Below, in pieces: positions 13,305 to 54,508 of a DNA stretch of 64,000 bases. Within the stretch, counting starts at the first letter, position 1; each line of letters starts with the position of its first letter. Position numbers and translations under genes: made by a program. The DNA lies in the sequence record NC_070980.1; one strand, given 5' to 3'. The stretch comes from Escherichia phage vB_EcoP_SU7. The notes beneath the pieces were generated by a model. That model was not told where the DNA came from, did no database searches, and saw only the letters and a list, made by a program, of their open reading frames with translations.

Positions 13305-13322
13305 TCTTATAATGTATATAGG
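13305..13322 (+). promoter_or_regulatory. candidate promoter with TAATGTATATAGG motif
   Basis: TTATAATGTATATAGG about 35 nt upstream of the 13355 start; the same core recurs at 23084-23096 (-), 23157-23171 (+) and 35528-35543 (-). Confidence 0.35.
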
Positions 13323-19705: not shown

Positions 19706-20294
19706 AGAGACCTCTCCGTGTCTCTTCAATAATCCACTCTAAATCCTCAACTGCCTCTTCTACAGAACGGTCATTAAAGAGGAGGTAGGTTGGTAGGTTT
19801 GTTCCTTCAATATAAGAACGGGAGTCCCCTTCAAAGGAGCAGCCATCGCGGAGAACCTGAACCACTCGAACATGGAAGTGTTTCTCTAGTTCTTCAACTT
19901 CTGCTTTAAAACCACCATCAGAGAAGACGATAACATCATTCTGTGATGGGATATGTTGTTGGATACTGCTAACAGCAAGTTTACCCATGCAGGTCTCACC
20001 AAACATAGGCTTCAGGTAATTCTCGCTAGTTGCAATCATCAAGTCTCGAACTGACTTACCGCCCCATTCAGGACGGACAAGTTCTTTCCACTCACGGTCG
20101 TTGTACAGCTCCATGAACTCGTAAAGAGGTAGACCTAATGCAGCAGCAGCCACTCGATACATAGGCTCCTTAAAAGCCCTTACATGCGGCCTAAACTCAG
20201 TGTTACCAGTGGTCTTCTCTAACCAAGCACTGGCGATTGTATCTTTACCGCAACCCGGAGGTCCATTTAGAATTACTACTAATGGTTTACTCAT
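19698..20294 (-). CDS. P-loop kinase, deoxynucleoside monophosphate kinase-like
   Basis: Walker A NGPPGCGKDT; size and layout resemble phage dNMP kinases (recalled, not searched). Confidence 0.45.
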   Translation of the reverse strand: MSKPLVVILNGPPGCGKDTIASAWLEKTTGNTEFRPHVRAFKEPMYRVAAAALGLPLYEFMELYNDREWKELVRPEWGGKSVRDLMIATSENYLKPMFGETCMGKLAVSSIQQHIPSQNDVIVFSDGGFKAEVEELEKHFHVRVVQVLRDGCSFEGDSRSYIEGTNLPTYLLFNDRSVEEAVEDLEWIIEETRRGLYV

Positions 20295-20944
20295 TATTGA
20301 ATCATCCCTTGAAGATCTTCTTTATCAAAGTGCTTCTCTACTACCGCTTCATACAGATCACGATTCTCCGAATAACGGCGATAGAAGGTTCCGTGTGAAA
20401 TTCCCAGCTCTTGCTGGATGTGATCATGAGGTATACCGAGGAAGAGCATTGAGAACATACTTGCCATCTTGCGGTTTTCCATAATATCACTTAGGTCCTG
20501 GAAGAAGAAAAAGATTCTAGATTCCAAGAATGGGTCTCCAGTAGAATCATGCTTATCCATAGCAATCTCTAAAGGACTTTCCCATGAATTCATCTCGGGA
20601 GGTCTAAACATATCAGCCTCTGGAATAGAATAGATACGTCTGTCTCCAACTGTCTGACGATTAGAACGAATCGACCAGATGATATTCTTCACACGATAAG
20701 TCATGTGTTCAATATCTTTTTCATCGGTAAGCAATAGTTCTTCTTGCTTTGCAAATACAAAACGCCAAGAGTTCAGTAACACTTCCTGAGCAACATCCTC
20801 TGCTTCGTGATAATCTTTAATGTCGTACATAAAATACTTATGCACAACTTTCCAATTCTCTCGATAGAATTCATCGAAGGTTGGGTAGTACTTAATAGGT
20901 ATGCCATGAATACGATAGCGTGTGGGTGTTGTCTTTTTCTTCAT
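20294..20944 (-). CDS. phage-encoded sigma factor-like protein
   Basis: Region 2-like [13 protein letters not shown] and region 4-like [15 protein letters not shown]. Confidence 0.5.
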
Positions 20945-21193: not shown

Positions 21194-21456
21194 TGTATTC
21201 CTCTCTCCTTTAGAGCTTTAAGCAAACCGTTGTGGTTAGCGGCACAGGTTGTATAAGTGTCCTGATACCACTCGAGTGTTGTTGCAAGTGCTACTCCCTG
21301 TCCACTCTGAAGTAAAGGGAGGTCTACATCACATTCAGCTTTTAGGTTTGTTGGTAAGGGCATTAGCTGCCTGCTGTTGTCGCTCGTTGAACAAGCCATC
21401 AAACTAGAAGCGAGAAAAATCACCAAACAACTCTTTTGCTTTTTCTTTGTAAGCAT
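21190..21456 (-). CDS. lipoprotein, candidate outer-membrane spanin
   Basis: Signal peptide with lipobox LMAC; short mature part with Pro and Cys; lies downstream of the candidate inner-membrane spanin. Confidence 0.4.
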   Translation of the reverse strand: MLTKKKQKSCLVIFLASSLMACSTSDNSRQLMPLPTNLKAECDVDLPLLQSGQGVALATTLEWYQDTYTTCAANHNGLLKALKERGIQ

Positions 21457-21790
21457 TTTCTGCACCCTCTTGAGTGCTGTGATAACCAAGCCAAATTACT
21501 TTGTTTTGATATCCGATGCGAGCACTCCATTTGTTAATATCCGACCTGTACCCTACACCTTTTATTCCAGTTAAAGAGTTCTTTTGAACTATTTTGTTGG
21601 CATTATTAAGGACAGGTGTTGCTCTTCTTAGATTGCTCCAAGAATTATTAGATTTGTCTAAATCTTTATGGTCTATTTGAAAATCAGGAATCTCTCCAGT
21701 TTTGATATACCAAGCAATTCTATGAGCTTTGTACTGTTTATATTGATAGGTAATCACTGTATAGCCATCTGTGGCTTTACAACCTGCCAC
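21404..21790 (-). CDS. HNH homing endonuclease with AP2-like DNA-binding domain
   Basis: IDHKDLDKSNNSWSNLR (HNH) and GIKGVGYRSDINKWSARIGY…GYHSTQEGAENAY (AP2-like). Confidence 0.6.
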   Translation of the reverse strand: MAGCKATDGYTVITYQYKQYKAHRIAWYIKTGEIPDFQIDHKDLDKSNNSWSNLRRATPVLNNANKIVQKNSLTGIKGVGYRSDINKWSARIGYQNKVIWLGYHSTQEGAENAYKEKAKELFGDFSRF

Positions 21791-23027: not shown

Positions 23028-23083
23028 ATTAATATTTCCTTATATAAATTTAAGATTGTTGCTCTCTTTGAGCGGTTTGTATA

Positions 23084-23096
23084 CTATATACATTAC
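23084..23096 (-). promoter_or_regulatory. candidate promoter motif GTAATGTATATAG (minus strand)
   Basis: About 57 nt upstream of the 23027 start; same core as 13310. Confidence 0.35.
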
Positions 23097-23156
23097 ACTT
23101 ATACAGATAAGGTTCTATTATACTATAACCTTTTTGGTAGTAGATAATGACAAGTA

Positions 23157-23171
23157 GTAATGTATATATGG
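23157..23171 (+). promoter_or_regulatory. second copy of the TAATGTATATA motif, opposite orientation
   Basis: GTAATGTATATATGG on the plus strand inside the 23028-23442 intergenic region. Confidence 0.25.
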
Positions 23172-23442
23172 TATAGCTAGTAAAGCTATTGCAGGCTTGT
23201 ATATTGGGCAATCATTGTAACCCTTGCAAGTACCGAAGGGCAGGAGACACCTGCGAGATAAAAATAGAGAATTAAGGAAATCCTTGATTTAGGTTGTAGG
23301 GACTCCTAGGGACTTTGATTCTCTATTTAAAAGAATATTAATTACTTACTACCTAAATAATTAACTAACTTACTTAAACCAAACTCAAGAATAATAGATA
23401 AAAAGATTATTCCTAAGAAAGCTAAAAAGTAAAGGATATAAG

Positions 23443-23607
23443 TTACCATTCAAGTAAACCTTTAAAGTTAGTTTGTTCTACTATCCTCTGATAACGAAGA
23501 TTAGAATCAGCTTGTTTCTTTAACATCTCATTATATTTATCTCTGATAGGGTCTTTATAAACTACAGGTTCTTTAAATAACGAGATCTTGTTCTTTTCTT
23601 CTTTCAT
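23443..23607 (-). CDS. small hypothetical protein
   Basis: ORF 23443-23691 trimmed to an internal ATG to reduce overlap with the phosphatase gene; start uncertain. Confidence 0.35.
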   Translation of the reverse strand: MKEEKNKISLFKEPVVYKDPIRDKYNEMLKKQADSNLRYQRIVEQTNFKGLLEW

Positions 23608-35527: not shown

Positions 35528-35543
35528 ATACTGTATATACATT
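35528..35543 (-). promoter_or_regulatory. candidate promoter motif AATGTATATACAG (minus strand)
   Basis: In the 35517-35568 intergenic gap; same TGTATATA core as 13310 and 23084. Confidence 0.3.
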
Positions 35544-35568
35544 TGAGAGTTATCATATCTACTACCAA

Positions 35569-54422: not shown

Positions 54423-54498
54423 TTGGTGCACCCTACAGGATTCGAACCTGTAACCAACGACTTAGAAGGTCGCTGCTCTGTCCATTGAGCTAAGGGTG
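54423..54498 (-). tRNA. tRNA-Arg (anticodon UCU)
   Basis: Minus-strand read GCACCCT-TA-GCTC…GAGC-A-GCGAC-CUUCUAA-GUCGU…ACAGG-UUCGAAU-CCUGU-AGGGUGC-A-CCA folds as a canonical cloverleaf with encoded CCA. Confidence 0.85.
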
Positions 54499-54508
54499 CT
54501 GGATTTGT

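Follow-up and report, generated by a model that had tools for sequence, protein, structure and literature searches.

A candidate antisense-facing promoter of the phage sigma factor gp36 and the conserved non-coding stretch that it faces in kuraviruses

What occupies the gap upstream of the gene 40 homolog in Escherichia phage vB_EcoP_SU7, a relative of phiEco32, and why does it carry promoter-like motifs on both strands? We examined this locus in a 64,000-nt stretch of the phage genome (NC_070980.1), referred to here as the window, in which all genes lie on the minus strand from ~18 kb onward; the gap is flanked on one side by a gene for a 246-amino-acid homolog of gp40 and on the other by small genes preceding a phosphoesterase. 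A preliminary description had presented it as a 415-bp AT-rich intergenic hub, and had offered a transcription switch point, an origin, or the source of an antisense or non-coding transcript as possible functions. We find that the gap is best explained, with a probability as a whole of roughly 0.55, as a boundary where transcription units meet, formed by two promoters of the phage sigma factor gp36 that stand back to back. One of these, on the minus strand, corresponds to the already known promoter P40; the other, on the plus strand, appears to be undescribed, as does the conserved stretch that it faces, and to this pair of elements we assign the same rough probability of being a gp36-dependent gene for a structured non-coding RNA.

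The argument begins with a single motif. The window has three exact copies of TAATGTATATA where 0.01 would be expected. Two of them lie in the gap in opposite orientations, just as the preliminary description had said; together these two form a perfect 12-nt inverted repeat, GTAATGTATATA (23085-23096 and 23157-23168, with 60 nt between the arms). The label 'promoter-like' was apt as well, since published work identifies TAATGTATA as the element that gp36 of phiEco32 recognizes (PMC4281155, PMC8948821, PMC12276001). Middle and late promoters of phiEco32 have a single common element, tAATGTAtA, located 6-8 nt upstream of the start sites (PMC4281155, PMC8948821). In the open complex at the promoter P68, determined by cryo-electron microscopy (PDB 9m7y), gp36 reads -14A, -13A, -12T and -11G plus -37G and -34A, the last two being contacts of its C-terminal domain, and transcription from P68 is abolished by mutating the bases that gp36 reads (PMC12276001). 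The window encodes an orthologue of this protein (Table 1) in which 10/10 published DNA-contact residues are identical (E79, H80, Y83, R84, W90, S91, S94, N95, Y186 and R187), and we propose that this orthologue would read both promoters of the gap. A generic scan for sigma-70 promoters and terminators returned results at chance level in the region.

By homology, the minus-strand copy is the promoter already known as P40. Its counterparts are named P40 in phiEco32 and P37 in SU10 (supplement of PMC8948821), and the SU10 paper describes a middle promoter as 'aagcgtaatgtatactatacataaccgctcaaagagagcaa between CDS37 and CDS38' (also rendered gtaatgtata...ccgctcaaagagagcaa), which is matched by the minus strand of the window at this position, GTGTAATGTATATAGTATACAAACCGCTCAAAGAGAGCAA. 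The P40 element is kept in 29/29 relatives examined, and beyond this group a sense-strand TAATGTA directly upstream of the gp40 homolog is also found in Proteus, Aeromonas and Cronobacter phages. If the geometry of P68 applies (PMC12276001), host RNA polymerase core together with gp36 would start near 23080 and would transcribe gp40 and the downstream genes, including the gene for the sigma factor itself; the predicted leader of this mRNA contains the Shine-Dalgarno sequence AAGGA at 23036-23040.

The plus-strand copy is a full counterpart of P68 and shares with that promoter -37G, -34A and AATG at identical spacing. The exact 12-mer TTGGTAGTAGAT is found in the window only in this plus-strand promoter and in the P68 homolog (35557-35568, minus strand), and the combination of P68-type features occurs at no other site in the window. 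Across 29 sequences (18 distinct), little or nothing changes in either the -35 block (TGGTAGTA.AT) or the -10 block (TAATgTATAtA), and 28 of the 29 relatives keep the AATG. All 12 positions of the spacer vary at constant length, GGTAGTA and AATG being 23 apart in every one of the 29. Invariant blocks joined by a variable spacer of constant length are the footprint expected of a working promoter, one that would, we infer, fire in vivo. It would start transcription at about 23173, which corresponds to nt ~36719 of phiEco32 (EU330206) and is 93 bp from the predicted start of P40, and read away from P40 and against all neighbouring genes. In ES17-type phages, ~150 nt are inserted between the two promoters, and there the plus-strand promoter stays with the conserved region rather than with P40. 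We note separately that this insertion (557-832 in ES17, L020; also present in L008 and L035-L039) contains a basic 47-amino-acid minus-strand open reading frame (ORF), MKFNHKYAATEKARAYVTARQSRVYKRQSPTNNSKETFVWTKPTTFR, whose start codon abuts the -35 block of the plus-strand promoter, and that P40 of the ES17-type phages also has G at -37 and A at -34.

How could such a promoter have been passed over in a phage group whose transcription has been mapped? The supplement of PMC8948821, citing Pavlova et al. 2012, gives six mapped gp36 promoters for phiEco32 (P6, P13, P26, P40, P58 and P68), and the plus-strand copy is not one of the six as they are given there. It also differs from them in setting, facing against the gene clusters and having no ORF after it, and the published promoter searches covered regions upstream of genes or the gene-sense strand only (PMC8948821). 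A full-text literature search for the promoter sequences returned unrelated papers only.

What the plus-strand promoter faces is a stretch of ~155 nt, from 23173 to ~23330, that is a constant feature of this phage group. The 2.5 kb around the gap match 97 phage records, every one of them from the phiEco32 group (Kuravirus and relatives) and from a phage of Escherichia or Shigella; HC-25922, MLP3 and 4E8 are the closest. The stretch is present in 97/97 of these kuravirus-group records. Over its last 90 nt (23240-23329), identity is 98-99% between phages with an 18% difference in gp40 protein sequence, and no other part of the 2.7 kb examined is as conserved. Among the matches listed, nearly all records have no annotated feature under it. 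The stretch itself contains no ATG and no conserved reading frame, shows 1-2-nt indels and has its central domain swapped between phages. Coding readings of 23050..23211 on the minus strand and of plus-strand ORFs were considered and rejected on the same kinds of evidence (frame not conserved, indels, no ATG). The single local annotation of that type, coding sequence (CDS) g037c of 4E8 (L001 2550-2744, equal to window 23050-23211 on the minus strand), spans both promoters in a frame that shifts between groups; it is probably a false call, and we correct the local annotation to that extent.

The distribution of the stretch ends abruptly at the border of the group. In phages of distant genera, only 75-100 nt lie upstream of the gp40 homolog and the conserved stretch is absent; when loci were searched by gp40 protein and by an alignment of gp40, no intermediates between kuraviruses and these distant genera came up, and complete Escherichia coli genomes and plasmids yielded no relatives of the stretch. 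Searches for further diversity comprised a pattern scan of IMG/VR, which gave five contigs that belong to known isolates and one other, and a metagenome scan, which gave six contigs, mostly of ES17 type. Rfam returned no match here at gathering or at permissive thresholds, the best local matches having E > 1. A search of the window for paralogs of the stretch or for long complementarity to it gave a longest match of 13 nt, which is about chance, and GGA motifs of the CsrA type number four in the predicted RNA against ~2 expected by a rough estimate, which is not significant. The DNA also holds a 9-nt perfect inverted repeat (23034-23042 and 23273-23281), as a result of which the predicted plus-strand RNA carries UAAGGAAAU, an identical copy, not a complement, of the Shine-Dalgarno region of the gp40 mRNA.

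Does the conserved stretch behave as an RNA, and if so in which sense? Plus-sense 23173-23335 has a predicted minimum free energy of -45.4 kcal/mol (z = -2.65, 0/200 shuffles), against -35.7 kcal/mol (z = -1.79) for the minus sense, and the plus strand folds better than the minus strand in 23/23 distinct sequences, by a mean of 7.0 kcal/mol; RNAalifold gave -31.15 for the plus and -25.4 for the minus sense of the same alignment. The predicted plus-sense fold consists of four hairpins, H1 to H4 (Table 1). Covariation is confined to H1, where two of six pairs are changed on both sides (U-A/G-C and C-G/U-A/A-U; six double-change cells), giving a covariation score that was reached by 0/500 shuffles, and where one pair alternates between G-C in 12 sequences and G-U in 11. 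H2 is replaced by a longer, unrelated, hairpin-forming sequence in MN05, ECBP2, ES17 and several metagenomic contigs, and the indels of H4 sit in predicted loops or bulge positions. Taken with the promoter, this pattern points to an RNA of ~155 nt (23173 to ~23330) that would fold into the four hairpins and would be made in middle and late infection.

H4 also contains the direct repeat noticed earlier in this gap, which is indeed there, as two copies of TAGGGACT at 23297-23304 and 23307-23314 with a 10-nt period. In the predicted model, the apical loop of H4 holds the first GGGACT copy and its 3' arm includes the second; two 8-mers in the apical part of a predicted hairpin do not make an iteron array, and we rejected that reading of the repeat. 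In TH34, ECBP2, XT32, Paul and L040, both copies are shortened together to GGACT, a change that RNA pairing does not require and that may point to a sequence-specific binder. As a 3' end, H4 is unconventional. Its 5' flank is A-rich and its 3' arm U-rich, the terminator scan did not call it, and it is unlike a canonical intrinsic terminator, in which a short GC-rich stem with a small loop precedes a U-tract, for it has an AU-rich stem, a large interior and a U-tract that all relatives share only on the minus side (UAUUUUUAU); on the plus side its tail is UAUUUAAAA, with no U-tract in TH34-type phages. We nevertheless read H4 as the probable end of the conserved unit because conservation and deletion breakpoints stop there. 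H4 lies 13 nt past the stop codon of a convergent gene, discussed below, so placed that it would probably both mark the end of the RNA and stop or attenuate the converging upstream operon. The start at +1, an end of the RNA at H4 and any regulatory role that it may have are inferred from these comparisons.

Several observations weigh against a plus-sense RNA gene. In one metagenome contig (ERZ1034915 NODE-75; L035), the plus-strand promoter reads TAATATATA / TAATATATATA, with a G-to-A change at -11 that turns AATG into AATA. H3 and H4 are without variation, which leaves covariation silent on them, and the invariance extends to their unpaired positions, a hint that they are constrained by more than RNA folding (recognition as DNA or by a protein, for example, or a role of both strands). 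Single substitutions do not decide the strand (~3 favour plus and 2 minus), so that the plus-sense assignment rests on the promoter and on the invariant G-U pairs. Given the AU-rich stem of H4, its absence from the terminator calls and the missing plus-side U-tract in TH34-type phages, the RNA may run on as a long antisense transcript. Finally, ES17-type phages have their 47-amino-acid minus-strand ORF between P40 and the conserved stretch, a position that suggests read-through of the region by minus-strand transcription.

Points such as these could also be accommodated by a function exercised in the minus sense or on the DNA itself, whether as a terminator, a processing site or a stability element for mRNA that reads through from the upstream middle operon, or as a protein site that insulates or regulates P40, the plus-strand motif then being a competing or decoy gp36 site that tunes P40. 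The invariant loops and linkers, the joint shortening of the GGGACT copies with its hint of a sequence-specific binder, and the mere 93 bp between the promoters would all suit such a function, as would the position of H4 just after the stop codon of the convergent gene and the U-tract after H4 on the minus strand, which is better than that on the plus. Against this, the minus-sense fold is the weaker one in every distinct sequence, and H1 is lost from the minus-strand consensus because G-U becomes C-A. A complete set of P68-type elements, including a -35 block whose sequence and spacing are conserved, exceeds what a decoy would need; the AU-rich H4 with its 45-nt interior is unlike the canonical terminator of this phage at 22263-22246; and the downstream ORF of the ES17-type phages implies that any minus-strand termination is incomplete. 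We regard a minus-sense or DNA-level function as unlikely on balance, though as the likeliest of the alternatives to the RNA gene. Of the functions first suggested for the gap, the antisense or non-coding transcript agrees with the best explanation, on comparative evidence, and the transcription switch point is a fair description in the sense of a boundary that separates transcription units.

The far side of the gap proved to be coding, and the size first given for it was wrong: a 35-amino-acid ORF occupies 23342..23449 on the minus strand, which leaves 23028-23341 (314 bp) as the non-coding part. The long AT-rich stretches of the preliminary description are real in that the region is 70% A+T against ~58% for the window, but they had been treated as non-coding, and they are largely this gene. 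The gene is real. It is homologous to annotated gene 41 of phiEco32, its start overlaps the upstream stop (ATGGTAA), and across relatives it shows conservative substitutions only, plus a 25-amino-acid variant in EcoN5, PE006 and L037. One transmembrane stretch is predicted in the peptide, which also has a polar tail. In Bas86, TH34, ECBP2, XT32 and Paul, the ORF is deleted.

A small hydrophobic peptide encoded opposite a putative antisense promoter calls to mind type I toxin-antitoxin pairs, in which case the convergent 35-amino-acid peptide gene would be regulated in cis by the plus-strand RNA acting as its antisense. The peptide has the size and shape of a type I toxin, the plus-strand promoter points at its gene, and no strong plus-strand terminator lies in between. 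However, the conserved region and the promoter are unchanged in at least five phages without the peptide gene, those just named; the conserved part of the RNA ends before the ORF; and the ORF is translationally coupled to the upstream gene in an operon of a lytic phage. Since phages that have lost the ORF keep the conserved region, we reject a toxin-antitoxin pair as the main explanation and consider it very improbable.

Could the transcript instead serve replication, as the suggestion of an origin implied? On this reading, transcription from the plus-strand promoter would leave an R-loop or primer within the conserved stretch and the A+T-rich DNA that follows, and phage DNA synthesis would begin from that point. 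In favour, the promoter is oriented against every neighbouring gene and has no ORF to serve, and conservation of the DNA is extreme, extending to positions that the RNA model leaves unpaired. The 110 bp beyond H4 are 72-82% A+T in every phage type, with or without the 35-amino-acid ORF, and the locus lies among genes of replication and nucleotide metabolism (a 5'-3' exonuclease and a deoxynucleoside monophosphate kinase are annotated in 4E8). For an origin, on the other hand, the pair of 8-mers falls short of an iteron array, the A+T tract is variable and much of it is a protein-coding gene that several phages have deleted, and cumulative GC skew shows no local inflection near 23 kb, though the skew is dominated by the direction of transcription. 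A hairpin that covaries and alternates G-C with G-U (H1), along with a domain that can be exchanged (H2), is what one would sooner expect of a functional RNA than of a DNA unwinding element, and distant relatives with the same replication genes are without the region. A promoter-primed origin seems improbable to us, less so than a toxin-antitoxin pair.

The coordinates of the promoters, hairpins and genes discussed here are collected in Table 1. Neither ARAGORN nor Rfam placed a tRNA or transfer-messenger RNA in the gap, and their only match in the window is a tRNA-Arg(TCT) at 54424-54499 on the minus strand. Two observations concern mobile genes in the surroundings: a 128-amino-acid ORF with HNH_3 and AP2 domains (21404-21790, minus strand) looks like a homing endonuclease, and in IME267 a different HNH gene is inserted a few genes upstream of the gap (L003 2724-3209).

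Table 1. Promoter elements, predicted RNA hairpins and genes at and around the gap, in coordinates of the window
Feature	Coordinates	Strand	Basis or remark
P40, -10-type element TAATGTATATA of the gp36-dependent middle promoter for gp40	23085..23095	-	SU10 and phiEco32 homology
Predicted 5' untranslated region of gp40 mRNA, 53 nt	23028..23080	-	start ~23080 from P68 geometry, AATG = -14..-11 (PMC12276001)
Plus-strand promoter, -35-type element TTGGTAGTAGAT	23134..23145	+	-37G = 23136, -34A = 23139; P68 match
Plus-strand promoter, -10-type element TAATGTATATA	23158..23168	+	AATG = 23159-23162 = -14..-11
H1, 5'-terminal hairpin AUAGCU-AGUAA-AGCUAU	23173..23189	+	predicted +1 at 23173, from P68 geometry
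H2, variable domain	23191..23234	+	closed by G-C pairs in both versions
H3, GCAGG-AGACA-CCUGC	23240..23254	+	invariant stem
H4, long hairpin, outer arms AAATAGAGAAT (23262-23272) and ATTCTCTATTT (23318-23328)	23262..23328	+	candidate 3' end or bidirectional terminator
gp36 orthologue, phage sigma factor	20294..20944	-	E = 2.8e-117 to PDB 9m7y chain F
gp40 homolog CDS, 246 amino acids	22287..23027	-	phrog_6599, phiEco32 gene 40 annotation; first gene of the operon leading to the sigma gene
35-amino-acid hydrophobic small-protein ORF MVTYILYFLAFLGIIFLSIILEFGLSKLVNYLGSK, phi32_41 homolog	23342..23449	-	phrog_24970, E = 4e-23
P68 homolog	35536-35568	-	TTGGTAGTAGAT, 12 nt, then AAATGTATATA
P26 homolog, late promoter	13310-13320	+	

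What would a gp36-dependent RNA gene at this locus mean for the group? phiEco32 is a model for phages that redirect host RNA polymerase by means of their own sigma factor, gp36, and the dual-role factor gp79, and its transcription map, as given in the supplement cited above, consists of six gp36 promoters, all of them before genes. A seventh conserved promoter, facing antisense and feeding a conserved non-coding region, would if true add an RNA component to that map. More tentatively, and with real doubt, this could be a gp36/gp79-dependent promoter that makes an abundant family of ~155-nt structured RNAs, universal in the genus and near-invariant in its 3' 90 nt, with a sequence-specific function relevant to infection; candidate roles would then include titration of a host RNA-binding protein, control of mRNAs of the host or the phage, or R-loop priming of DNA replication. 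Purified gp36 holoenzyme, gp79 and assay templates exist, so a seventh promoter would be easy to test. Public RNA-seq reads from E. coli NC101 at 10 min after infection (PRJNA1225266), from a study with the kuraviruses RSB02 and RSB04 (PX402466 and PX402468) in its phage panel, were mapped to the host only. Kuraviruses, among them ES17, SU10 and several BASEL phages, are in therapeutic use or under consideration for it, and their records leave this stretch unannotated or with a doubtful ORF.

The nearest parallel to the minus-strand half of the locus is P48 of Salmonella phage 7-11, a phage-sigma promoter that likewise lies directly upstream of the gp40 homolog (gene 48), with the sigma gene after it; P48 has been mapped, and positive feedback on the following sigma gene has been proposed (PMC8948821). 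Phage 7-11 differs in its consensus, GTAAtg-(16)-aCTA, and in its gap of ~100 nt, which is without a divergent promoter and without the conserved region.

Two further systems resemble the plus-strand half. In the primary origin of T7 and in ori(uvsY) and ori(34) of T4, a phage-specific promoter is followed by A+T-rich DNA. The present locus is similar in that a candidate phage-specific promoter is followed within ~160 nt by DNA of 72-82% A+T, in a block of replication and nucleotide-metabolism genes; unlike those origins, its predicted transcribed segment is conserved, structured and GC-richer, and much of its A+T tract is a dispensable gene. OOP RNA of phage lambda, a short antisense RNA made from pO and convergent with cII, was once proposed to be a replication primer. 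Like OOP, the RNA predicted here would be a short RNA directed against operon flow from its own promoter, with a hairpin end near the 3' end of a convergent gene and replication functions close by, and both invite two competing readings, regulator or primer. The candidate kuravirus RNA has no sequence or Rfam similarity to OOP, would be about twice its length and is predicted to form four hairpins; its promoter would be read by a phage sigma factor, and its conserved part, unlike OOP, overlaps no coding sequence.

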